Source: a phage
Length of the DNA: 64,000 bases
Sequence record: PZ445488.1
Strand: one strand, 5' to 3'
Below the pieces are notes generated by a model. That model did no database searches. It was not told where the DNA came from and saw only the letters and a program-made list of their open reading frames with translations. Each line of letters starts with the position of its first letter. Position 1 is the first letter of the stretch. Shown in pieces: positions 409 to 60,919 of this stretch. The position numbers and the translations under genes were made by a program.

Positions 409-445
409 TTTATTCTCCAGATGTTTAAGTTGTTTATTGGTACAG

Positions 446-479
446 GTCTATAATAACATAACCTGTACCAAAGTAAACT
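446..479 (-). promoter_or_regulatory. T4-type early promoter (-35 GTTTAC, 17-nt spacer, -10 TATTAT)
   Basis: minus strand reads GTTTAC-N17-TATTATAG just upstream of ORF 43..408. Confidence 0.5.
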
Positions 480-482
480 GTT

Positions 483-851
483 TTATGCAACTTTAATCCA
501 ATTGTCTAAATTTAAAACACCTTTGGCTTTCATTTTTTCGATCAGGTTATCTGCTGTAATGCGTCCATTTTGATACCATGTAACATCTTCAGAGTAACCA
601 GTTTCTTCGTCAACATATGTTTCTGAACGAATTTTACCGGTAATAATAGTTTTTAATTCGTATGTGTCACCTGTGAAAAAGTTTGCTAACACAATTTTCC
701 AAGAGAAATCATCAGAAGGACCTTCAGGGGTCATACAACCTACGAACTCAAATTGCTCTTTGTATAACATCCACTGGAATTCTTTAATTTCGATAGCTTT
801 ATAACCATCGTGGTCTTTACATTTGATGTATGAGTTCAGATTGATTTTCAT
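483..851 (-). CDS. hypothetical early protein
   Basis: 122-aa ORF, early-gene orientation, promoter-like element upstream. Confidence 0.5.
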   Translation of the reverse strand: MKINLNSYIKCKDHDGYKAIEIKEFQWMLYKEQFEFVGCMTPEGPSDDFSWKIVLANFFTGDTYELKTIITGKIRSETYVDEETGYSEDVTWYQNGRITADNLIEKMKAKGVLNLDNWIKVA

Positions 852-4416: not shown

Positions 4417-4476
4417 TTCTATTTCCTCATTTGTTGGTAGAGTTATAGTATCACAACTCCACCATGTTGTAAACCA

Positions 4477-4752
4477 TTAAATTGCTTTGCATTCAATTTT
4501 TTGTGTACCGAAATTGATATCACATTGGATAACTAAATCACCGTCAAGATCAAATACCACTATGACGTGTGCAGACCCAGGGAGAAGAGTAATAGCAATA
4601 GAATCTACTTGGTCTGGGAGCAAAGCATTGAGTACATGAGTTAGTTGAGCATGAACTCTGAGTTCGGCTGCATTATCAAGCACTTCAAACATATTATTAG
4701 CAATAATCTGACTGAAGACTACCTTTACAATTTCAGAATAAGTTGGGAACAT
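4477..4752 (-). CDS. hypothetical protein
   Basis: 91-aa ORF in early orientation. Confidence 0.35.
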   Translation of the reverse strand: MFPTYSEIVKVVFSQIIANNMFEVLDNAAELRVHAQLTHVLNALLPDQVDSIAITLLPGSAHVIVVFDLDGDLVIQCDINFGTQKIECKAI

Positions 4753-6542: not shown

Positions 6543-6567
6543 TTAGATTTCCTCAATTATCCATAGG

Positions 6568-6600
6568 AGCATTATACTCTGCTCCCAAGAGTTTGTAAAC
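6568..6600 (-). promoter_or_regulatory. T4-type early promoter (GTTTAC-N18-TATAAT), member of a repeated promoter segment
   Basis: minus strand GTTTACaaactcttgggagcagagTATAATgct; near-identical copy at 36040..36079. Confidence 0.5.
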
Positions 6601-6824
6601 TATTTTACTAAAGATTCAATATACTCATGAAGAGCTTTAGTCGCTACTGCCCACTTGTTCTGATATTCATTTTTCAAATTAGCACGAGACTGAACTAACA
6701 AGCGGTCATTAGTCGGAGGCAAAGATTCTAATCGTTGAATCTGGCGTCCATAAATCATAGCCGCCATTTCAGAATCATAAATAAGCCCTTTAAGGTACTC
6801 GTGTTGTTCTTTAGTCATTGACAT
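6600..6824 (-). CDS. hypothetical protein
   Basis: 74-aa ORF. Confidence 0.35.
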   Translation of the reverse strand: MSMTKEQHEYLKGLIYDSEMAAMIYGRQIQRLESLPPTNDRLLVQSRANLKNEYQNKWAVATKALHEYIESLVK

Positions 6825-16245: not shown

Positions 16246-16308
16246 TTTATTCTCCTCTTCACTTTTATTTGATAGGACTACTATAACATAGCCCTATCTT
16301 GTTATAAA

Positions 16309-16701
16309 CTACTTTTTAAAAGTTTTTTGCAAAAGTTTGATGATTTCGTCGACGTTGGTTTCATCTACGATACAATGGATTTTTGTTACACCTAAAGTTA
16401 TACCTTCGTTAGTAGGTTGAGGCTTTACTAAATCTACCTCAGTAAAGTATTTGAACTCGTCAGGATAAATCTCAAAATAAGTTTCAATTTCACCACCGGC
16501 AGAACATACCGTACCATCTTCCATAGTTACACTTACTACGTTTGACGTATCGCTATCATAATCAGGTTCCATTCCGTTTACAACAAAACTAGGCCCGTGG
16601 AGTTCAATCAATTTTAACATCTTAGCATTATTGTGTGGTGCTTCTTGAACAAAGTCATCTTTAAATAAAGGGTTAATGATATAAGATTTTCCGATTTCCA
16701 T
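16309..16701 (-). CDS. hypothetical protein (frd.2 position)
   Basis: 130-aa ORF with promoter upstream. Confidence 0.4.
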   Translation of the reverse strand: MEIGKSYIINPLFKDDFVQEAPHNNAKMLKLIELHGPSFVVNGMEPDYDSDTSNVVSVTMEDGTVCSAGGEIETYFEIYPDEFKYFTEVDLVKPQPTNEGITLGVTKIHCIVDETNVDEIIKLLQKTFKK

Positions 16702-16726
16702 TTTGATTTCCTCATGTTGTTGATAA

Positions 16727-16760
16727 GTCTATACTAACACATCCAGGGAAGAAGTAAACA
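16727..16760 (-). promoter_or_regulatory. T4-type early promoter
   Basis: GTTTAC-N17-TAGTATAG on minus strand. Confidence 0.45.
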
Positions 16761-16792
16761 ACTTTTTTTCAGCAATTTACAGATACTCAAAA

Positions 16793-16810
16793 GGGAGACC
16801 GAAGTCTCCC
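16793..16810 (-). terminator. tetraloop hairpin gggagac-cgaa-gtctccc after gene 32
   Basis: perfect inverted repeat 7 nt after gp32 stop. Confidence 0.55.
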
Positions 16811-16816
16811 AATTTA

Positions 16817-17716
16817 TTATAGACCAGCTAACAGGTCATCGAGGTCGCCATCGTCAGAAGACGAGGAACTCATGAAGTCATCTTCAGTTTTTGCAGAACT
16901 AAAGGCTTCCATGTCTTTATCAAAATCGTCAAGGTCAGAAGCAACTTTATCTGCAACAGAAGCTGCTGCGGCTGCTGCACCACCAAGAGCGGCAGTACCA
17001 AGAACCTTAGCGAAAGATTCATTTAATTTTTCAAAGGACTTGAACTGGTCTTTAGCCGTCAAAGTAGTAAGGTCTACCATCTGGTCATATAGTTCTTTCT
17101 GGAATGCTTCGTCATTAATACGAGGAATTTCAGATTGACCCAAGAATTTAGATTCGTCATAGTTGCTAAAACCGGAAACCTGCTTAGCTTTCAGAACGAA
17201 GTTGGCACCTTCAAACGGGCAAGTAACATCAACCGGAGTTTCACCCATTTCGGTATCAACTGCAATCATTGCATTGATTTTGTCCCAAATCTTTTTACCG
17301 AAACGATATTTAAATACTTTACCTTCATTATCTGGAGCTTGAGGGTCTTTAACAACCAGAATATTAGCCCAATAAGAAGTTTTACGTTTCAGTTGAGAAT
17401 ATTCAGTTTTGTTGGTATTGTACAGGTCATTTTTACTAATGTACTGACATACAGGACAAGAGTCGTAATCACCATGTGTAGAAGAGCAATTTTCAATATA
17501 CCATTTACCATTTTTCTTGAAACCGTGGTTAACAAGAATTGCAAATGGTAGTGCGTCATCAGTTTTTGCTGGCAGGAAACGAATTACCGCTTGACCATTA
17601 CCTGATGCATCTAGCTTCAGCTTCCATTCGCCTTTATCTTCTGAAGAGAAACCTTTGTTACCGTTCAGTTTAGCCATTTGAGCAGCGAGGTCAGCAGTAG
17701 ATTTACGTTTAAACAT
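16817..17716 (-). CDS. 32: single-stranded DNA-binding protein gp32
   Basis: 299 aa; zinc-binding H-x-C-x-C-x-C region and acidic Ser/Asp-rich C-terminal tail; T4 gp32-like. Confidence 0.95.
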
Positions 17717-20105: not shown

Positions 20106-23100
20106 ATGGCCGACATCAAACGTAAGTTCAGAGCCGAAGACGGTCTGGACGCCGGTGGCGACAAGATTGTTAACGTAGCATTAGCCGACCGTACAGTAGG
20201 TACTGATGGCGTAAACGTTGACTTCCTGGTACAAGAAAACACCGTTCAAGTATATGATTCTACGCGTGGATACAACAAAGGATTTGTTGTTCTTTATGAC
20301 AACCGTTTATATCAAGCAATAAATGATATCGTGTCTCCTTCCGGGGCATTTAACCTTTTACAATGGCGTGCAGTTCGTACCGATGCACAATGGATAACTG
20401 TCGCTTCTGGGACTTATCAACTTTCTTCAGGTGAATCGATTTCGGTTAACACTGGTGCCGGCAATGATATGGTTTTTACATTGCCAAATACTCCAGTTGA
20501 TGGTGATACTGTTGTTTTGGCTGATATTGGTGGACGAACCGGGACAGTTAAAGTACAGATTAACGCGTCTGTACAGAGTATTTTAAACTTTAGAGGTGAA
20601 CAAGTTCGTACGGTTTTAATGACGCGCCCACGTTCACAACTATTGTTTGTGTTTAGTAATCGTTTGTGGCAGATGTATATTACCGATTATGGTAAAGAAT
20701 CAATCACTGTTACACCTGCGACACCATATCAAGCACAAGCAAATGATTTTATCGTTCGTCGTTTTACTAGTGCAGCACCAATCAACATTACACTTCCACG
20801 TAATGCTAACAACGGTGATATAATCAGCCTAGTCGATTTAGATAGATTAAACCCACTGTATCATACATTTGTTAAAACATTTGATGATACAACGTCTATT
20901 GGTGAAGTCGGGACTCATATTGCCGAAGGCAGAAATGACTCTGACGCGTTTTTTGTTTTTGATGCTGCAAATAGTTTATGGCGTATATGGGAAGGCGACC
21001 AGAAATCGCGTCTTCGTATTATCCGTGCGGATTCAAATATTCGTCCAAATGAAGAAGTTCTTATTTTTGGCACAAATAACGCTACAACCGGAACTATTAA
21101 TCTTACGCTGCCTACCGGAATTTTGAGTGGTGACACTGTTAAAATTTCAATGAACTACATGCGTAAAGGTCAAACAGTAAAAATTAAAGCTGCCGAAGGT
21201 GATACAATTGCTTCCACTGTTGCATTGCTTCAGTTCCCTAAACGTTCTGAATATCCACCTGATGCTCAATGGGTCTCTGTTACTGAACTAGAATTCAATG
21301 GCACTACTTCATATGTTCCTGTATTAGAATTAGCGTATATCGAAGACACCGTTGCTGGTACACGTTATTGGGTTGTGCAACAGAATGTCCCTACAGTAGA
21401 ACGTGTTGATGCTGGAACTGATGCTACACGAGCTCGTTTAGGTGTTATTGCTCTTGCTACTCAAGCGCAAGCAAATGTTGATTTAGAGAATACTCCAGCT
21501 AAAGAAGTGGCTATTACTCCTGAAACGTTGGCAAATCGTACAGCAACTGAAGCTCGACGTGGTATCGCTAAAATTGCTACAACAGCACAAGTTAACCAGA
21601 ATTCCACAGCAACATTTGTGGATGATACTATTGTTACGCCTAAAAAACTAAATGAGCGTACAGCAACTGAAACTCGTCGTGGTCTTGCTGAAATTGCTAC
21701 TCAGGCTGAAACAGATGCTGGTCTTGACGACACAACGATTATTACACCTAAGAAATTACAGGCACGTCAGGGTTCCGAAACACTATCTGGTATAGTTAAA
21801 TATGTATCAACTACTTCTGCTACTCCTGCTGAAACTCGTGGGACCGCAGGCACTAACGTTTATAATAAAACCGTAAATAATTTAACTATTTCTCCTAAAG
21901 CCCTTGACCAATATAAAGCAACTTATGCTCAACAAGGTGCGGTAATTTTAGCTATTGATAGTGAAGTAATTGCCGGACAATCTCAGTCTGGATACTCTCA
22001 CGCTGTAGTAACTCCTGAAACACTACATAAGAAAACTTCTACTGATGGACGTATTGGTTTAATTGAAATTGCTACGCAAGCAGAAACTAACACTGGAACT
22101 GATTATACTAGAGCAGTAACGCCTAAGACGTTAAATGATAGGAAAGCTACGGAAGGATTATCCGGCATAGCCGAAATTGCTACGCAAGTTGAATTTGATA
22201 CTGGAACTGATGATACTCGTATCTCGTCTCCACTGAAAATTAAAACTCATTTTAATTCTTCTGACCGTACCAGTGTTAATTCTGATTCCGGACTTATTGA
22301 AGAAGGAACCTTGTGGAACCATTATACTCTTGATATTTCTAAAGCAAATGAAACACAACGCGGTACGCTTCGCGTAGCGACCCAAGCAGAATCTAATGCA
22401 GGAACTTTAGATGATGTTCTTATTACTCCTAAAAAGCTTTTAGGAACTAAGTCCACTGAAACGTCTGAAGGCGTGATTAAGGTTGCTACTCAGGCTGAAA
22501 CTGTAACAGGAACTTCTGCTAATACTGCTGTATCTCCTAAGAATTTAAAATGGATTGTCCAGAATGAACCAACATGGGCTGCTACTACTGCAATAAGAGG
22601 TTTTGTTAAAACTTCATCTGGTTCAATTACATTCGTTGGTAATGATACAGTTGGTTCAACACAACCTTTAGAATCATATGAAAAAAATAGCTATGCTATA
22701 TCTCCATATGAATTAAACCGTGTACTTGCTAACTATTTGCCATTGAAAGCTAAAGCCGTAGATAGTAATCTGTTAGATGGTCTAGATTCTCTTCAGTTCA
22801 TCCGTAGAGACATCGACCAGACGGTTAATGGTTCTTTAAGTCTTACTAAACAGACCAACCTGAGTGCTCCTTTAGTATCTACAAGCACTGCTTCTTTTGG
22901 GTCCGAAGCATCTGTTACTCGTAGATTAACTCTTAATGACTCTAGCGGTTCCGAAATAGTTTTCACTAAAGGAACCCAATCTCTTAGTAATAAAGAGAAT
23001 TTCGTTGTTAGAGCATGGGGTAATAGCTCTACAGATGGTGCCCGTGATACAGTATTTGAAGCTGGTGACGAAACCGGATACCATTTCTATTCTCAGCGCG

Positions 23101-32749: not shown

Positions 32750-33382
32750 TCACAGTACGTTAGTTACAAGGGTAATGATTTCTTTAGACACATTAGGGAA
32801 GTCAATGTAAGTATATTTACCACCGATCTTAATCTTAACATCATTTTCAAGAGAAGTAAACAGCTTTGATTCAGTTTCTGACATGTTGTATGCAAAGATT
32901 CTAAGAGCGCCATCTCGTCGAATTTCAATTTGGCGAATGCCTAGAACTCGTTTAGCGAATCGAACTTCTAAGTTACTACGGTTTTCACCAATTTCTTTAA
33001 CTTCAACTTTATCTTTAATATTTTCAAAAACAAAGTTTGCTAATTCATGCATTTCAGGAGTAACTCCACGTGCTTTTCTGGTGTTACGTTTCTGAAGAAG
33101 TTCTGGAGCATTTTCTTGAGCAAATAGGTCTGCAGCTTTTTGGATAATATCCATTGCTTCGCCGGTTGCCACAAGTCCATCACCAGATTTTTCGACTAAA
33201 CCTTTCTTAATCAATACACCAATGTTAGAGTTAACAACTGATGCATTGTATTCTGCTTCCAGAGCTTCACGGACATTGGCAGCAGTGGTGAAGTTGTTCT
33301 TAATGATATAAACCATTATTGCAGCAGTTTTTTCATTCAGAGTGTTTTCAGAAGCTTTGATGATGTAAGTAACTTTAGACAT
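32750..33382 (-). CDS. motA: middle-transcription activator MotA
   Basis: 210 aa; MSKVTYIIKAS...VVNSNIGVLIKKGLVEKSGDGL... matches remembered T4 MotA. Confidence 0.9.
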   Translation of the reverse strand: MSKVTYIIKASENTLNEKTAAIMVYIIKNNFTTAANVREALEAEYNASVVNSNIGVLIKKGLVEKSGDGLVATGEAMDIIQKAADLFAQENAPELLQKRNTRKARGVTPEMHELANFVFENIKDKVEVKEIGENRSNLEVRFAKRVLGIRQIEIRRDGALRIFAYNMSETESKLFTSLENDVKIKIGGKYTYIDFPNVSKEIITLVTNVL

Positions 33383-33415
33383 TTTATTTCTCCAAATTAG
33401 TATTTTTTTTTGATA

Positions 33416-33450
33416 GGTCTATAATATCATGTTTGAAGCAAAAGTAAACT
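33416..33450 (-). promoter_or_regulatory. early promoter for motA with MotA-box-like TGCTTCA in spacer; copy A of a duplicated promoter/leader
   Basis: GTTTACttttGCTTCAaacatgaTATTATAG on minus strand; duplicated at 33737..33771. Confidence 0.5.
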
Positions 33451-33486
33451 TTATTTTGGGCTCTTTTTCAAAAGCCCTGGTAAAAT

Positions 33487-33702
33487 TTACAAACTCATTT
33501 CTTTAATAAGGCTAATAAGTTTTGCCTTTTTAGAACGAAGCTTTTCTAAATGATACCCGTTTGAACCGCGAACAACTAAAGAATTGATTTCAACTTCTAA
33601 GAAATTTAATTCTTCAACAAGTGCTTTACGGGGAGCATTCATACCAGGTTTAACTTTACCGAAACGAGTAGTTGTGTTTTGGGTTAATTTCATTTTAGAC
33701 AT
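33487..33702 (-). CDS. hypothetical basic protein (71 aa) sharing leader and MSK start with motA
   Basis: identical 5' leader and ATGTCTAAA start as motA. Confidence 0.45.
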   Translation of the reverse strand: MSKMKLTQNTTTRFGKVKPGMNAPRKALVEELNFLEVEINSLVVRGSNGYHLEKLRSKKAKLISLIKEMSL

Positions 33703-33736
33703 TTTATTTCTCCAATTTGGTTGTTTTGTTTTGATA

Positions 33737-33771
33737 GGTCTATAATATCATGTTTGAAGCACATGTAAACT
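33737..33771 (-). promoter_or_regulatory. early promoter, copy B of duplicated promoter/leader
   Basis: GTTTACatgtGCTTCAaacatgaTATTATAG on minus strand. Confidence 0.5.
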
Positions 33772-33797
33772 GTTTTGTGAGGAAAAATGCACAAAAG

Positions 33798-33813
33798 GGA
33801 GCTTCGGCTCCCT
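33798..33813. other. tetraloop hairpin gggagc-uucg-gcuccc, exact reverse complement of hairpin 20..35
   Basis: perfect inverted repeat between gene 52 and downstream ORF; opposite orientation to other hairpins. Confidence 0.4.
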
Positions 33814-33888
33814 AATCATGTTTGTCCAACCAATACAACCAAATCACTAGTGCAGCTATTGCACTGAGAAATCCTAAGGCTAGGGCAC

Positions 33889-35214
33889 TCAAAGTGCCTC
33901 CAAGTCTTTAGTGTACTCTGTCACAACATCAGTAGACTTCCAATACTCATTTTCTTCTTTCTTAGCTTTAGCTTCTTCTGCTAGTTTACGTGCTTCATCG
34001 GAAGTGATATGGAAGATGTTAAGACCTACCAGTTTATCGACATGTTCTTTATACATTTCGATTTGTGCTAGCTCTTCGGTCAAAGCTTTACGAGTCTTGC
34101 CCTGAATCACAATTTCGCCACTGATAACTTTTTTGATGAAGTGTGCCTTAGCAAAAGCAAGTTTAAATGCTTTTTCAGATTCAAGGATTTTGTTGTCAAT
34201 ACGTTTCTGAACGTAAGTCTTACGGACTTCAACAAAATCTTTGATTAAGTCCACTACGTTATCGTAGACTGCTAATTTACCCTTTTCATTAATCACTGTG
34301 ATGTTTTGTGAACGACGTTCGATGAGACTAAAATCTTTCATGATTTTTTCATGACGTAGATCTTCATCATCAGGAAGCGAGTACTCTTTACGGAACTTCA
34401 CCTTAAACCCAAAGCCGTGTTCACCACAATCATCTTCCCATGAGATTAGACCTTTGTCTTCCAACGGGTCAAGAACCTTACTCACATACGTTTCACGGTC
34501 GAATTTATATGGGATTTCAGTTATCTGCATTTGAGTACGAGATGTGAACTTGTATGTTCCGTGAATCTCATAACGCCCATCAACTTCATGCACTTCACCA
34601 CGGAATTCCGGGAATTCAACTTTTGGCTTAGTGACATTTTTACCTTGAAGAGCTTGTAATACAGCCTTTTTGACTGATTTAAAACTATGAGGCAGAATAT
34701 TTGTTGCGTAACCGGTTGCAATACCAGAGACGCCATTCAAAAGAACTGTCGGAATAATAGGAAGATAGAATTTTGGTGGAACGTGTTCTTTATCTTCGTG
34801 AGCTGGAGCATATTCAGTATCTTTATATACGTTATAGAAATTTTTACTTACACGAGCAAAAATATAACGAGATGCTGCAGCTTTTTGGACTGTTCTAGAA
34901 CCAAAGTTGCCTTGGCCATCTAACAGTGGATAATTGTTGTTCCATGTGTTAGCCATTAATGCACCTGCATCTTGTGCAGAAGATTCACCATGGTGATAAC
35001 CTAAATCTGCAACACCGCCTGCAATTGACGCAAGTTTATGAAATTTTTCTTTATTACCACGAGCCAAATCTAATGCACGATGAACCACAAAACGTTGAAC
35101 CGGCTTAAATCCATCAATCATGTTTGGGATTGCACGGTTTTCAACGGTGTACATAGCATATGCTAAGGCTTCGTTATCAATAATACTTTTTAGATTACGA
35201 GAATTCAATTGCAT
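33889..35214 (-). CDS. 52: DNA topoisomerase II medium subunit gp52
   Basis: 441 aa; GyrA/ParC-like N-terminal region (AIPNMIDGFKPVQRFV, active-site Tyr region); T4 gp52-like. Confidence 0.9.
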   Translation of the reverse strand: MQLNSRNLKSIIDNEALAYAMYTVENRAIPNMIDGFKPVQRFVVHRALDLARGNKEKFHKLASIAGGVADLGYHHGESSAQDAGALMANTWNNNYPLLDGQGNFGSRTVQKAAASRYIFARVSKNFYNVYKDTEYAPAHEDKEHVPPKFYLPIIPTVLLNGVSGIATGYATNILPHSFKSVKKAVLQALQGKNVTKPKVEFPEFRGEVHEVDGRYEIHGTYKFTSRTQMQITEIPYKFDRETYVSKVLDPLEDKGLISWEDDCGEHGFGFKVKFRKEYSLPDDEDLRHEKIMKDFSLIERRSQNITVINEKGKLAVYDNVVDLIKDFVEVRKTYVQKRIDNKILESEKAFKLAFAKAHFIKKVISGEIVIQGKTRKALTEELAQIEMYKEHVDKLVGLNIFHITSDEARKLAEEAKAKKEENEYWKSTDVVTEYTKDLEAL

Positions 35215-36004: not shown

Positions 36005-36046
36005 GCTAATTTCCTCAATTGATTAATGTTTTTGTAATCCATGAGA

Positions 36047-36078
36047 GCATTATACTCTGCTCTCAAGAGTTTGTACAA
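36047..36078 (-). promoter_or_regulatory. early promoter for ndd (variant -35 TGTACA, -10 TATAAT), repeated promoter segment
   Basis: near-identical to segment 6561..6600. Confidence 0.45.
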
Positions 36079-36080
36079 TT

Positions 36081-36281
36081 TTATTCGGTTATATCAGAAC
36101 GTTCAAAAAGCTCTTCAACAGTTAAACATTCAGTGTCATCCTCAATAAAGAATCGAGTCCAACACGTTGGGGCGATACAGTTATGAGTTTGTCCGGTGAT
36201 AGAAGCTACACGAATAAGCTGCTGACCATTATTCAGAACAAATTTTTCACCAATTTCAACATCTTTAAAAAGCTTAGCCAT
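36081..36281 (-). CDS. hypothetical protein
   Basis: 66-aa ORF with own promoter. Confidence 0.35.
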   Translation of the reverse strand: MAKLFKDVEIGEKFVLNNGQQLIRVASITGQTHNCIAPTCWTRFFIEDDTECLTVEELFERSDITE

Positions 36282-36307
36282 TTTGTGTTCCTCATGTTTT
36301 GATAGGA

Positions 36308-36340
36308 CTACTATACCATAATCCTATCGTGATGTAAACA
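36308..36340 (-). promoter_or_regulatory. T4-type early promoter
   Basis: GTTTAC-N18-TATAGT on minus strand. Confidence 0.45.
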
Positions 36341-36531
36341 ATTAAATTACATTAAAATATGTTAAAGCCAGCCATGTTCCAGTGAACGAACATGCAATGT
36401 AAAAACCCGTATCACAAATTGTTCTTAGTACAATAAGAAGTGCATTTTTCATAAGTACCTCAACACAATTGAAAATATTATACAAATCATTGGGATACTA
36501 AGCAACCATATTCCTATCCACATTTTAGAGC

Positions 36532-36795: not shown

Positions 36796-36818
36796 GATGT
36801 TATCCTCTTTTAGATAGG

Positions 36819-36852
36819 ACTACTATATCATAGTCCTACTTAGTTGTAAACA
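36819..36852 (-). promoter_or_regulatory. T4-type early promoter
   Basis: GTTTAC and TATAGT-like -10 on minus strand. Confidence 0.45.
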
Positions 36853-36863
36853 CTTTTGTGAAA

Positions 36864-37421
36864 TTAAAGATGAAGATACCACCCGTTGTAGTTGCTCTTG
36901 CGGACGATTTTCTTTAGGTCTTCATGGTCTCCCACGAACTTTATAGAATAAGAGAAGACGTCAGGTGAGGTTTCTTTGACATCTAATATAATAATGCAAT
37001 CTGCGACTCGATGGTTCAAGAAGGGCCCTATATTGATTCCATTACCACCCGGATAATCACCACTGTATCCTGTGGTAACCGAAATCCATTTCGAATCCAT
37101 CTGATGGGTCTTTACTTCTACGCGTAGACCACAGTACTTAGGATGAGCTAAAACGTCCCATGCATACGTGTACGGGTCTTCTACGTCTTCATTACCTTTA
37201 TTAACATATCCGTCTAGCCAATTTGCTACTACATACTCTGCAAAGACTGCAACCTTACAACGTCGAACAACGTCTTCTTTTATTTGACCTGGATCTTGTT
37301 TCAACGAGTACCGAGCAGTATCAGCGATCTTAACCTTCATTTCGCTAGTCAAAAACTCATTCGACAGGATAAATGTCGGAAGACTCTTCAGCCTCAACAG
37401 TCCCAAGTTCGTCTTTACCAT
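36864..37421 (-). CDS. denB: endonuclease IV; start set at MVKTNLGLL
   Basis: 185 aa; NLGLLRLKSLPTFILS.EFL.SEMKVKIADTARYSLKQ.PGQIKEDVVRRCKVAVFAEYVVANWLDGYVNKG matches remembered T4 DenB. Confidence 0.85.
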   Translation of the reverse strand: MVKTNLGLLRLKSLPTFILSNEFLTSEMKVKIADTARYSLKQDPGQIKEDVVRRCKVAVFAEYVVANWLDGYVNKGNEDVEDPYTYAWDVLAHPKYCGLRVEVKTHQMDSKWISVTTGYSGDYPGGNGINIGPFLNHRVADCIIILDVKETSPDVFSYSIKFVGDHEDLKKIVRKSNYNGWYLHL

Positions 37422-45876: not shown

Positions 45877-46130
45877 TAAGTTGTACCGTTTTCAGTGATT
45901 TCACGGAAGATACCGTAGATAGGCATTTCATCACCGAGTTTTTCGTAAACGTAAACCACTTCAGTGTAGCATAAAAATCCGGTCCAGTTTTTCTGTACAA
46001 CAACTAAATCAGGATTAAACAGAACATCTTCAAACTCATCGATGTTTGAATCAGTAGTTACGTTTTTAATGATTTGACGTTTCATAATATTCTCCTCTTG
46101 TTTTGATAGGTCTATAGTATCATAGACCAT
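45858..46130 (-). CDS. hypothetical protein
   Basis: 90-aa ORF. Confidence 0.4.
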
Positions 46131-46142
46131 AGTTGTTGTACA

Positions 46143-46667
46143 TCATTTTAGCAAAATAAAATCAACTTGTTCTGCCAATGAACGTCTAAACATTAATTGA
46201 CAACTTCCGAGGATGAAATCAGGTGCTTCATAGACCGCGATGTAGTATCCTTTAGCTTTCAAGAGTTCAACATCCACCTGGTCATCAAACCATGCATAAA
46301 CCGCGTCAACGCTTTCAAATCCAAAATAGAACCCTTGAGCCCAATCTTCACTCAATTCAAATGTGTACTCAATTCTATGGTATCTTAAGATATTTTGTTC
46401 AAGAAGTTTGTCTTCATTTACTGTAGGACGATTAGGGACATTATAGTTGTCGCCGTGATGGTAGAAGTTACCTGAGAGTATTCCATGCTTATCAAGGAAC
46501 TCCCATGTTTCTTCAGAGTTGTCAGTGCCAGACCAACCGTAAGGTGAGCGAGGTTCTTTATTCCAAGAGGTTTCCCAAATTCTGACGGCTTTACCGTCTT
46601 CGATAACAATTCCTGGTAATGATTCACGTTGAGTACAAAAACTACGTTCTACGCGGTAAACTAACAT
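46143..46667 (-). CDS. hypothetical protein
   Basis: 174-aa ORF, no motif recognised. Confidence 0.45.
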   Translation of the reverse strand: MLVYRVERSFCTQRESLPGIVIEDGKAVRIWETSWNKEPRSPYGWSGTDNSEETWEFLDKHGILSGNFYHHGDNYNVPNRPTVNEDKLLEQNILRYHRIEYTFELSEDWAQGFYFGFESVDAVYAWFDDQVDVELLKAKGYYIAVYEAPDFILGSCQLMFRRSLAEQVDFILLK

Positions 46668-46726
46668 ATTATTCTCCTCTGGTTGATATGGTTATAATAT
46701 CAAAACCAGAGGAGAAGTAAACAACT

Positions 46727-47146
46727 TTATGCGAAAGCAGCTGGGCTATATTTTTTAATTTGGAATTCAGGAACTACCATGAACTGACCAGCGAAAACGA
46801 TGTTATAAAGCTTAACACCATCTTCTACCCAACGGTCGCTAATAAATCCGGCGATTTGCTTAGTTTTCCATGGCGTTCCATCAGTTGCCGCAGCAATAGT
46901 GAATTCATGGTCTTTTTCAACAGAAACTGATCTGCATAGTCCCCATTTGAACGCTTTTTCTTCTGGCTCAATGAACTGGCTTGAGACGTAGCCAATATTA
47001 CCATTAGCATCACGAACTTTAACTTGGTTACGACCAAAAACCGGATCACTCACAGAAAGAACTTCAACCAACTTCCCGGCAACTTTAGAGCGAGAAGCAA
47101 CAGATACATATACGTAATCACCTGTAGAGAGATTTACAATATTCAT
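46727..47146 (-). CDS. paralogue family member 1 (unknown function)
   Basis: 139 aa; shares SRSKVAGKLVEV and C-terminal FISDRWVEDGVKLYNIVFAG motifs with the next two ORFs. Confidence 0.55.
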   Translation of the reverse strand: MNIVNLSTGDYVYVSVASRSKVAGKLVEVLSVSDPVFGRNQVKVRDANGNIGYVSSQFIEPEEKAFKWGLCRSVSVEKDHEFTIAAATDGTPWKTKQIAGFISDRWVEDGVKLYNIVFAGQFMVVPEFQIKKYSPAAFA

Positions 47147-51324: not shown

Positions 51325-51477
51325 AATATTTTCCTCTGTCTTACGGACGTTAAGGTCATTTAGCTGATAAGCTTATAATATCATGCCCTCAGGTAGTGTA
51401 CACTCTTTTTTCATAAAATGCTTTAATTTTTTATGTGTTATAATGGTTTTGAGTTCCATCCGGTTATTCCAATCCAG

Positions 51478-52725: not shown

Positions 52726-52941
52726 GATAGACCTCCATTTAAAGATAAGCCTATCATAACACGAGAGGAGGGAATGTAAACTACTTTTTAAGCTTTCCTA
52801 CTAAAGGTCCATCAGGGCCAGGTTGTTCTAACATGAATAACGATGCTTTAAAAAGCAATGTCAACCCTTTCACCATTCGATACCATGTCTCAAAGTCTTT
52901 TTCCTTGATTTCTAGTAAGAATTTCTCTTTAAATTTCTCTT

Positions 52942-54192: not shown

Positions 54193-54265
54193 AATGTTCT
54201 CCTCTTGAGTAAGTAAGAATATCTTAACATAGTTTTTAGTGGATGTAAACTCTAGAAACGAAAAA

Positions 54266-54285
54266 AGGAATCCCGAAGGATTCCT
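54266..54285 (-). terminator. tetraloop hairpin aggaaucc-uucg-ggauuccu after soc
   Basis: perfect 8-bp inverted repeat 9 nt after soc stop. Confidence 0.5.
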
Positions 54286-54293
54286 TAAATTAT

Positions 54294-58073: not shown

Positions 58074-58136
58074 TTTAACTCCTTAGTTGATTTGATAGGA
58101 CTACTATACTATAGTCCATCTATAATGTAAACAAGT

Positions 58137-58385
58137 TTATTCTTTTTCGCGAATAATAATTACTTGTTGAGGCTGCTGAGCAGATTTCTTTTCGGCAACG
58201 ATAGACCAAATTAAAGTTCCAATCCAACCAATCATCGTCCAGTTAAAGAGTAAAGATACAAAGAAGATTGCTGTTGTGCTTTTTGTGCCACGAATAAGTG
58301 CGATTACCCAAGGCAACATGTAAATGATGATTGAACCAATACCTGCGATTAAAACTGCTACTGAACTAGCTACGAATAATTCCAT
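58137..58385 (-). CDS. small two-helix inner-membrane protein
   Basis: 82 aa; two hydrophobic segments (VAVLIAGIGSIIIYMLPWVIALI and AIFFVSLLFNWTMIGWIGTLIWSIV). Confidence 0.5.
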   Translation of the reverse strand: MELFVASSVAVLIAGIGSIIIYMLPWVIALIRGTKSTTAIFFVSLLFNWTMIGWIGTLIWSIVAEKKSAQQPQQVIIIREKE

Positions 58386-59388: not shown

Positions 59389-59453
59389 TTTGTTCTCCTC
59401 TTGGTTGGTGTAAGTACATCATATCATGCCTAGAGGAAGATGTAAACCCCGAA

Positions 59454-59471
59454 AGGAGACCGAAGTCTCCT
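59454..59471 (-). terminator. tetraloop hairpin aggagac-cgaa-gtctcct after gene 41
   Basis: perfect inverted repeat 5 nt after gp41 stop, followed by a GTTTAC promoter. Confidence 0.5.
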
Positions 59472-59476
59472 TTTTA

Positions 59477-60919
59477 TTAAAATTTTAACTCATTGGCTAA
59501 GCTATCTAGGTCAGCACGTGTTGCTTTGGCTTTACCTACGCGTTCCGTACGATTCACCTCTGCCTGACGCATCTGAGCACCTGCGTTTTCATTTACTGTG
59601 TTAGGTGTGTTCATGCCTTCTTGCTCAATCTCAATCCATTTCTGGTTGCCTTTACGTACACCCATCAAGAACTTGTTCCACTTATTCTTATCACCGTATC
59701 GTGATTTGATTTGTTTGATAAGTTGTTGTTCAGCTTGTGCAAGTTCTTCGGTTTCAATTACGGCCAACATGAAATCTGCCGTTGCTGGTAAACCTGCTGA
59801 TTCTGCGATATCACTCATGTTCATGTCTGAAGCATCCCATGCTGCACGTCCTACTTGGGCTGCAGTCCATAGAACTGTTTCAGATTCTACTGCTAATGCA
59901 CGAAGTTCTTCTGCGATAGCTTTAACTAATGTGTAGCTATTTTCAGTGTAAACTCTGATACGACAAGACCCACAAATACCTAAGTAATCAACCATGATTA
60001 CAGATGGCACAAAGTTCTTCTTAAGTTTTAACTCATTAAGCAATGCACGGAATGTATTAGCATTAGCTCCACCAGTAGGATACTGTTTAACTACTAAACG
60101 TCCTAATGTGGATTTTGAACGCCATTTTTCCATCTTGGCTTTATATTCAGCATAAGATACGTTACCATCATCGATATCATCGAGCGATACGTCAAGCATA
60201 TTTGCATCTATACGCTTAGCACAAACTTCTTCAGCCATTTCCATGGAAATATAAAGAACATTATGTCCTGTTTGAAGATAATCTGCAGCAAGTGAACAAA
60301 GGCCTAAAGATTTACCAACGTTAACACCGGCCATTAAAACGTTCAGTGTACCTGTTTCTGCGCCACCTTTGGTGATTTTATTAAGAATGTTTAATTTGAA
60401 CGGGACCTTACGTGCTTTATTTAGATAAGAAAGCCAGCGTGCTTCATAGTCTTCCATCCAGTCATGTCCAACATAACTATCAAACGAAATTGAAAGTGCT
60501 TGACGCATAATATCAGGAATAGCTCCTACGTCAGGCATTTTCTTGTTACGTTGTTCTGGAGGTAGTTCAGCATTAGACTGAATCTCAATGATTTTGGATG
60601 TAGCATTATACATCGCTTTTTGCTGGACATATTTCTCAGTTTCTTTAACCAACCATTCGTGGTCTTCAGGAGTATCAGCCAATTTTTCAATTAGGTCTGA
60701 AGTTCCTTTATATTCGGCTTCAGTTAAAGAACTGTTATCTAAAGCCACCTTTAACGCATTGATAGATGGCATTGCATTATATTCGTTAACGTGGCTCTTT
60801 ATAATTTTAAAGACGTTTTTTGCCGGTCCACGCTCAAAATACTCAGAATCCATATAAGGCCAGACCTTAGAAAAATAAGCCTGGTCATATACTAGATGAG
60901 ACAAAATAATTTCTACCAC
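59477..60919 (-). CDS. 41: replicative DNA helicase gp41 (DnaB family)
   Basis: 480 aa; Walker A GVNVGKS, RecA-like core; T4 gp41-like. Confidence 0.9.
   Translation of the reverse strand: MVEIILSHLVYDQAYFSKVWPYMDSEYFERGPAKNVFKIIKSHVNEYNAMPSINALKVALDNSSLTEAEYKGTSDLIEKLADTPEDHEWLVKETEKYVQQKAMYNATSKIIEIQSNAELPPEQRNKKMPDVGAIPDIMRQALSISFDSYVGHDWMEDYEARWLSYLNKARKVPFKLNILNKITKGGAETGTLNVLMAGVNVGKSLGLCSLAADYLQTGHNVLYISMEMAEEVCAKRIDANMLDVSLDDIDDGNVSYAEYKAKMEKWRSKSTLGRLVVKQYPTGGANANTFRALLNELKLKKNFVPSVIMVDYLGICGSCRIRVYTENSYTLVKAIAEELRALAVESETVLWTAAQVGRAAWDASDMNMSDIAESAGLPATADFMLAVIETEELAQAEQQLIKQIKSRYGDKNKWNKFLMGVRKGNQKWIEIEQEGMNTPNTVNENAGAQMRQAEVNRTERVGKAKATRADLDSLANELKF

Follow-up and report, generated by a model that had tools for sequence, protein, structure and literature searches.

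The motA gene of this phage and a 71-aa open reading frame (ORF) upstream of it are each preceded by nearly the same segment of DNA. These two segments are very likely a pair of PeSL-type cassettes with sigma-70 early promoters that drive the ORF and motA, and that also serve as direct repeats for recombination and gene conversion. The window, that is, the whole stretch of 64,000 nucleotides that was analysed, is from a Mosigvirus (RB69-like) and is 97-98% identical to the genomes of ST0, HX01, and PhAPEC2. GenBank phage records were the main source of comparative data because IMG/VR yielded few loci, two with a MotA query and eight with the exact cassette pattern.

Organization of the motA locus

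The genes at this locus are on the minus strand in the order gene 52 (35214-33889), 71-aa ORF (33702-33487), and motA (33382-32750). The following features were identified.

33889..35214, minus strand: gene 52, the upstream conserved gene, topoisomerase II medium subunit (PF00521, 4.5e-78; phrog_551; gp52 in the annotation of relatives)
33812..33892, minus strand: possible 26-aa hydrophobic mini-ORF with a TTG start (uncertain), from translation; overlaps the gene 52 stop codon
33790..33812, minus strand: stem-loop GGGAGCCGAAGCTCCC and then TTTTGTG, which forms the gene 52 terminator and also the stem-loop of the upstream PeSL (RNA fold)
33694..33779, minus strand: cassette copy 2, upstream of the 71-aa ORF, with an A-rich tract and a full promoter, leader, and start; -35 GTTTAC 33770-33765, TGCTTCA 33761-33755, TGn and -10 TATTAT 33747-33742, predicted +1 near 33735, Shine-Dalgarno (SD) GGAG 33713-33710, ATGTCTAAA 33702-33694
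33487..33702, minus strand: 71-aa ORF, variable cargo between the two cassettes (ORFan; phrog_6200, 1.6e-39)
33458..33477, minus strand: stem-loop GGGCUUUU-GAAA-AAGAGCCC, stem-loop part of the motA-proximal PeSL (RNA fold; no U tract)
33374..33458, minus strand: cassette copy 1, upstream of motA, with the A-rich tract AAAATAAA and a full promoter, leader, and start; -35 GTTTAC 33449-33444, TGCTTCA 33440-33434, TGn and -10 TATTAT 33426-33421, predicted +1 near 33414, SD GGAG 33393-33390, ATGTCTAAA 33382-33374
32750..33382, minus strand: motA, activator of middle transcription (PF09114, 2.3e-39; PF09158, 2.2e-8; phrog_1345, 6.7e-90)

The +1 positions of both copies were placed from the position of the -10 hexamer. 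The MotA protein encoded in the window is 51% identical to T4 MotA. The possible mini-ORF is at the position of T4 motA.1, and a small ORF has been annotated there in T4, JS98, and HY126.

The two copies as a repeat pair

One copy was compared with the whole window by blastn. Minus-strand positions 33449-33374 and 33770-33694 share 71 of 78 identities (91%) with one gap (E 1.3e-21). The next-best match to a cassette copy is a fragment of 23-26 nt at 46098-46123. The start-to-start distance of the two copies is 320/321 bp. A 33-nt promoter core, TGCTTCAAACATGATATTATAGACCTATCAAAA, is perfectly identical between the copies. So is a 22-nt block, TTGGAGAAATAAAATGTCTAAA, that spans the SD sequence, the start codon, and two further codons. 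The original prediction had described a repeat of about 80 bp with about 90% identity. This is borne out, with a single indel, and the pair is the closest among about 15 early-type promoters. The motifs that had been named are all present, although they are read on the minus strand, whereas the coordinates given with them were plus-strand positions. Comparison of the window with itself, which had been proposed as a check, recovers the pair both by repeat scan and by blastn.

The early-type promoters of the window form a family. There are about 15 of them on the minus strand, with GTTTAC, a spacer of 17-18 nt, TG-n-TAT..T, AGnCCTATCAAA, and GGAGAA..ATG. It could be argued that the two copies show only the general likeness of T4-type early promoters with strong ribosome-binding sites, as a result of convergence or chance and without a true duplication. 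The common motifs speak for this, since the early-type promoters of the window align with each other at 60-77%, and ATGTCTAAAGT was even found in a cassette at an unlinked locus of a Tequatrovirus. However, this reading was tested and is extremely improbable. Over 80 nt, the pairwise identity of the other early-type promoters has a mean of 60% and a maximum of 77.5%, and the motA/ORF pair is an outlier at 89%. The spacer, which is otherwise variable, is common to this pair only (14 of 16 compared positions). A repeat scan of the whole window found a family of seven promoter cores, in which the motA/ORF pair is 89% identical and the others are 61-66% identical. The E-value between the copies (1e-21) and the behaviour of the 321-bp segment as a unit across population comparisons also stand against chance. 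The similarity of the pair is in part a family trait and in part a specific recent relationship, and it is well beyond chance and the family background.

Predicted early promoters, leaders, and stem-loops

The order of elements is the same in each copy. A stem-loop is followed by an A-rich tract, GTTTAC, a 17-nt spacer, TGA, TATTAT, AGACCTATCAAAA, the leader, GGAG, 7 nt, and ATG (ATGTCTAAA). Each copy has the parts of a T4-type early promoter, with a GTTTAC -35, a spacer in the range of 17-18 nt, TGn, a TAnnnT -10, and an A-rich UP region. Both agree with the 'UP/-35/TGn/-10' architecture by which T4 early promoters have been described. They resemble the published T4-type early promoters in the GTTTAC -35, the A-rich tract, the TGn extended -10, TAnnnT, and C at -3 and -2 (PMC1524935). 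They are also located 5' of the orthologue of a T4 early gene. Their consensus agrees with the one given for RB69, also in the C residues directly ahead of the start site. They differ from the commoner promoters of this type in having a spacer of 17 nt, not 18, a form that appears as '1 bp del' in the published list (PMC1524935).

The single cassette of RB69 has been published as early promoter Pe:162713, with a score of 33.1 in the HMM list, and it is directly downstream of a TransTerm-predicted terminator, 'motA<--52' (Nolan et al., 2006, PMC1524935). A coordinate search of the supplements of that paper found the RB69 orthologue in the lists of early promoters and terminators only. In contrast to the single copy of RB69, the window has a two-copy arrangement, which is not described there. 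A literature search found no Mosigvirus transcriptome or start-site map. In T4, motA RNA can be detected within 1 min of infection.

The original prediction was that the repeated promoter-leader-start module may indicate promoter duplication or co-regulation of the two genes. This is supported. Given the duplicated module, joint expression in the immediate-early phase is predicted for the 71-aa ORF and motA. Host RNA polymerase would fire both promoters immediately after infection. A divergent promoter on the plus strand, using an inverted GTTTGA, was also considered and was rejected, as its spacer to a TAnnnT hexamer is only 15 nt.

The leaders are about 32 nt long and, by RNA folding, have no more structure than shuffled sequence (z 0.2-0.4). 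In T4, the SD sequence of motA, GGAG, is cut by the RegB nuclease, and strong sites follow GG*AGRAYARAA (Uzan and Miller, 2010, PMC3014915). The two leaders of the window, with GGAG and an A-rich tract, look like the sites at which cleavage by RegB inactivates the motA mRNA of T4. The likeness to RegB-cleaved T4 early mRNAs (PMC3014915) is in the GGAG SD followed by an A-rich tract, here found before motA and before its duplicated neighbour. Both leaders read GGAGAAATAAAA. Unlike strong T4 RegB sites, these predicted sites fit the consensus GGAGRAYARAA only with a shift of 1 nt. Several other early leaders in the window, GGAGAATAAAA, fit it exactly.

The upstream hairpin (33812-33797), GGGAGCCGAAGCUCCC followed by UUUUGUG, has a folding energy of -14.6 kcal/mol (z -3.2). 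ARNold predicts a terminator here in PhAPEC2, and TransTerm does so in RB69. The motA-proximal hairpin has a folding energy of -12.3 kcal/mol (z -3.8), and none of 200 shuffled sequences was as stable. It is conserved in the Dhakavirus JS98 as GAGCUCUU-GAAA-AAGAGCUC, with a compensatory change of G-C to A-T, and is also present in VR5, IME281, and ACG-C40. A terminator scan of the window called neither of these minus-strand hairpins, and the assignment is taken from folding and from the terminators published or annotated in relatives. The motA-proximal hairpin probably does not terminate transcription efficiently, and a role for it as the PeSL terminator appears doubtful. Because it has no U tract, transcripts that start at the upstream copy probably also read past it into motA.

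Comparison with PeSL cassettes

The PeSLs (promoter-early stem-loops) of T4-like phages consist of a stem-loop, which by definition acts as a terminator, an AT-rich region, -35 and -10 elements, an SD sequence, and a start codon, and they occur as tandem copies around ORFans (Arbiol et al., 2010, PMC2839356; Comeau et al., 2014, PMC4122927). Through recombination, they enable these phages to acquire, lose, and exchange small genes. The same papers propose excision and integration of mini-circles. Each of these composite parts was found here, as were tandem copies around a small ORFan. A stem-loop is immediately upstream of each promoter (z -3.2 and -3.8, the second with the compensatory change). 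It is followed by an AT-rich tract and then by TTTACT or TTTACA and by TATTAT, which are of the type TTTACW...TAYWAT. TG precedes the -10, and the quoted N17 spacer is reduced here by 1 nt. The SD sequence and start codon are at the 3' end, as GGAG, 7 nt, and ATG in both copies. As in published PeSLs, the flanked ORF is not constant among close relatives, which have gained it, lost it, or exchanged it for another. The junctions are within the cassette, with crossovers between the -10 and SD or between the SD and ATG, and modules move between genera.

There are also differences. The slot here adjoins an essential regulatory gene, unlike the loci of the PeSL papers, and is not in a large hyperplastic region. 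Unlike in published PeSLs, the proximal hairpin has no U tract and the repeat reaches three codons into the coding sequence. PMC2839356 and PMC4122927 make no mention of motA, of the gene 52-motA locus, of Mosigvirus or RB69-like phages, or of Dhakavirus or JS98-like phages.

The TGCTTCA element

The spacer of each copy contains TGCTTCA, and it had been suggested originally that this element resembles a MotA box and that MotA might regulate its own gene. Middle promoters have the geometry WWWTGCTTtA-N11-13-TAtaAT, with the box in place of the -35 (Hinton, 2010, PMC2988021). If TGCTTCA were a functional MotA box, the two promoters would be MotA-dependent (middle or hybrid), or MotA would repress its own early promoter, and the 71-aa ORF would be under the same control. 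The copy 1 box, TTTTGCTTCA, agrees at every position with (a/t)(a/t)(a/t)TGCTT(t/c)A, and the cassettes are like MotA-dependent middle promoters (PMC2988021) in having the TGCTT(t/c)A core and a good -10 with TGn. TGCTT is found in the spacer of no other early-type promoter in the window. Related motifs are found in the motA-promoter spacers of several genera, TGCTTTAAAC, TGCATTAAAC, CGCTTTAAAC, TGCATAAAC, and TGCTAAAC, and MotA tolerates departures from the box consensus. The copy 2 box, ATGTGCTTCA, has a G at one W position.

The position of the element argues against such a box. TGCTTCA ends 7 nt before the -10 hexamer in both copies, compared with 11-13 nt in middle promoters (PMC2988021), and it is 3 nt downstream of an intact early -35, GTTTAC, that has not been replaced. 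As both the spacing and the -35 are unlike those of middle promoters, the cassettes do not belong to that class. An alternative downstream -10 that would place TGCTTCA in register was sought, and the only one is TAGACC, which does not have the essential final T. The canonical geometry, TGCTTYA-N11-13-TANNNT, occurs at 11 sites in the window compared with 1.67 expected, and neither cassette is among the 11. This enrichment indicates that the phage uses the usual middle-promoter geometry. As there are 61 occurrences of TGCTTYA in the window, a single one among about 15 promoter spacers does not stand out. The CTT core is CAT in CHI14 and PS2, and a paralogous cassette in the Tequatrovirus SH_GT reads TGTTTTA. 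The core is thus broken in some genera, and the conserved part is mainly ...TAAAC, not GCTT. The element is absent from the motA promoters of T4 and a Jiaodavirus, and a literature search found no report of MotA autoregulation. A working MotA box within these complete sigma-70 promoters is therefore highly unlikely, and the suggestion of MotA autoregulation is not supported.

A related possibility is that the motA-proximal spacer carries a conserved operator, bound by MotA or by another early protein, that would shut off motA transcription. The candidate operator would be TGC(T/A)T(N)AAAC, or an inverted repeat, GTTTA-N9-TAAAC, formed with the -35. The motif recurs in Mosig-, Dhaka-, Marfa-, Winkler-, Moon-, and Muldoonvirus and in an Aeromonas phage. 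The motA-promoter spacer differs less between genera than does the spacer of one other orthologous early promoter, which is unrelated between Mosigvirus and Dhakavirus. Horizontal movement of cassettes would explain much of the spacer conservation among the coliphage genera, but only partly. Such an operator is very unlikely. If it were real, the 71-aa ORF would have become subject to this negative feedback when the cassette was duplicated, and the mispositioned MotA box would have a repressor role. It would also go some way towards explaining how T4 early promoters are shut off, a process that has been described as unexplained and AsiA-independent.

Presence and absence of the 71-aa ORF in Mosigvirus

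The two repeats bracket a presence/absence polymorphism and, as sequence comparison shows, act as recombination substrates, a point that was missed in the original prediction. Of about 155 records that match at 90% identity or more, 76 match a 1001-nt query from gene 52 to motA in full and have the two-copy locus. In RB69 and many other Mosigviruses, the same span is 680 bp. The difference from the 1001 bp of the window is exactly 321 bp, which is one repeat unit. About half of the sequenced Mosigviruses, including RB69, do not have this unit and hence do not have the 71-aa ORF.

Alignment shows that the single cassettes of the one-copy Mosigviruses are chimeras of copies 1 and 2. The RB69 cassette begins as copy 2, with the upstream flank and the first part of the spacer, and continues with the copy 1 leader. 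In HY126, phiE142, phiC120, mobillu, and JK45, copy 2 continues through the leader and is followed by motA, with the junction inside the 22-nt identical block. The cassettes of F2 and mar005P1 are mosaics, with the copy 2 flank, the copy 1 "TTT" spacer start, and the copy 2 leader. There are at least three junction patterns among the single cassettes, and this favours recurrent exchange over a single event. Unequal exchange between the 321-bp direct repeats removes or inserts the 71-aa ORF. The chimeric junctions fall in the zones where PeSL mini-circle crossovers have been sequenced, between the -10 and SD and between the SD and ATG.

The slot upstream of motA in other genera

The slot between the two cassettes is also occupied outside Mosigvirus. 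JS98 and VR5 (Dhakavirus) have the same architecture of terminator, promoter, homologue of the 71-aa ORF, hairpin, promoter, and motA. An unrelated 75-aa ORF is in the slot in IME281 (Dhakavirus) and in ACG-C40 and three related Tequatrovirus contigs. A third, different ORF is found in IME341. T4, RB69, Marfa, and vB_EcoM_005 have a slot without an ORF. The module with the 75-aa ORF is about 99% identical between ACG-C40 (Tequatrovirus) and IME281 (Dhakavirus), from the upstream to the downstream promoter start region. Divergence is visibly much greater in the adjoining motA coding sequence, and identity over the whole 729-nt match is 83%. A module this similar beside a diverged motA indicates that the unit of leader, ORF, hairpin, and promoter core has moved between genera, with boundaries inside the promoters.

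The two copies are also kept alike within each genome. Both copies have TGCTTCA and TATTAT in Mosigvirus and TGCTTTA and TACTAT in Dhakavirus. After the -35, both copies read TTA in VR5 and TTC in JS98. Genus-specific substitutions that are common to both copies point to gene conversion within genomes. The Dhakavirus repeat extends only about 10 nt beyond the start region, and the ORF and motA have different leaders there. In Mosigvirus, the leader and first three codons of the ORF are those of motA, and the ORF begins with MSK there and with MNK in Dhakavirus. The motA version of the leader and start is common to Marfa and T4. On the simplest reading, a gene-conversion tract from the motA copy overwrote the translation start of the ORF. 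Gene conversion would then keep the two copies alike in each genome, including the ORF leader and first three codons.

Alternatively, the 71-aa protein and MotA could be functional partners whose expression has to be matched, and selection for this would hold the copies identical, with recombination being incidental. The ORF does adjoin motA in two genera, and the identity in Mosigvirus reaches the leader and three codons, so that not only transcription but also the initiation of translation would be made equal. Such a partnership is nevertheless unlikely. About half of the Mosigviruses do not have the ORF, unrelated ORFs fill the slot in IME281, ACG-C40, and IME341, and the leaders of the two genes differ in Dhakavirus. 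The mosaic single cassettes, moreover, are products of recombination and not of selection. Recombination and gene conversion between PeSL-type cassettes is the preferred explanation.

With this explanation, the locus reveals no new regulatory principle and is an ordinary example of known PeSL cassettes at a new locus and in new genera. It is a clean and well-populated natural case of gene flux through PeSLs, in a coliphage genus that is well sampled, with about 76 two-copy genomes and a similar number of single-copy genomes. It combines at least three junction types, three alternative cargo ORFs over four genera, and signs of gene conversion. The gene-flux slot is directly upstream of the master activator of middle transcription. 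The locus would be convenient for assays of recombination between repeats of 30-80 bp in T4-like phages. Annotations of the locus can be extended by two early promoters, a terminator, and an orphan immediate-early gene.

The 71-aa ORF

The 71-aa ORF has no sequence match in Pfam, PADLOC, or the PDB, and only eight homologue clusters were found among 5.8 billion proteins. It is present in 94 phage records, all of Mosigvirus or Dhakavirus. Of these, 77 are close and 17 (Dhakavirus) are at 60-80% identity. The AlphaFold model of the protein (pLDDT 76.6) has a disordered basic N-terminus and a generic helical hairpin. A Foldseek search with this model gave no informative structural neighbour. Two weak structural neighbours, from RB27 and P545, were dropped, as neither is encoded at the motA locus. 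The most fitting description of the 71-aa ORF is an orphan immediate-early gene, typical of what is found in PeSL slots.

Early-type promoters across the window

The early-promoter cores across the window fall into two sub-families, one with seven members and one with six. Positions are given for five members of the first and for all of the second.

Early-promoter cores and repeated hairpins in the window
432-487, 16713-16768, 46676-46731, 51357-51412 and 52735-52790: first sub-family core
4432-4491, 16267-16326, 36297-36356, 36809-36868, 46101-46160 and 58090-58149: second sub-family core
957-984, 16791-16818, 54265-54292 and 59452-59479: hairpin AAGGGAGACCGAAGTCTCCC

The cores at 36297-36356 and 36809-36868 are 77% identical with a spacing of 512 bp, and this pair may bracket a further small-gene slot. 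There is also another promoter-like pair, 6559-6604 and 36037-36082, with 87% identity across 46 nt and 29 kb between the copies. Pairs of this type could mediate large deletions or inversions.

In most of the early-type promoters of the window, the -10 hexamer is bracketed by an inverted repeat. This was seen on the minus strand at 478, 6600, 16309, 36339, 36851, 46123, and 58132. For example, the inverted repeat is TAGGACTATgaTATAGTAGTCCTA at promoter 36851 and GGTACAGGT...ACCTGTACC at promoter 478. The motA and ORF71 cassettes are without an inverted repeat around the -10.

The hairpin AAGGGAGACCGAAGTCTCCC is present in four copies. The copy at 59452-59479 is directly upstream of the early-type promoter at 59447. 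Another, at 16791-16818, is about 23 nt away from the promoter-core repeat 16713-16768. These hairpins with their promoters look like additional composite units similar to the promoter-early stem-loop (PeSL) cassettes.

The motA region and similar cassettes in other phages

The motA upstream regions of seven comparison loci from other phages (L003, L017, L024, L025, L027, L028, and L030) were compared with window 33429-33449. In several genera the motA-proximal early promoter retains the motif TGC(T/A)T(N)AAAC in its spacer. Together with the -35, this motif forms the inverted repeat GTTTA-N9-TAAAC. The T4 motA promoter does not have it; the same spacer position holds TGCTT in reverse-complement form, AAGCA.

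In the Tequatrovirus Shigella phage vb_GEC_SH_GT (L018, 611-700), a cassette that includes ATGTCTAAAGT shares about 84% identity with the one at motA. It lies 5' of a different small ORF at an unlinked locus close to dmd and sp, and its spacer is TGTTTTAAAC. In Escherichia phage vB_EcoM_005 (L015, 3272 and 3446), an early promoter with its ORF start (MTKIEIVSEIATIVS) is tandemly duplicated downstream of motA, the copies being 174 bp apart.

The records of phages F2 (L019) and JK45 (L022) carry Tequatrovirus in their taxonomy lines. The gene 52-motA region of both is 96% identical to the Mosigvirus window, and the label is probably a classification error.

Other features of the window

A possible hydrophobic mini-ORF of 26 aa with a TTG start (33812-33892, minus strand) overlaps the gene 52 stop codon. 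It lies at the position of T4 motA.1 and is annotated in some relatives only. Within a coding region, 21537-22523 contains two interleaved direct-repeat families with units of 44-45 nt and spacings of 108, 120, 198, and 375 bp. The repeats probably specify a peptide motif that recurs in a fibrous structural protein.
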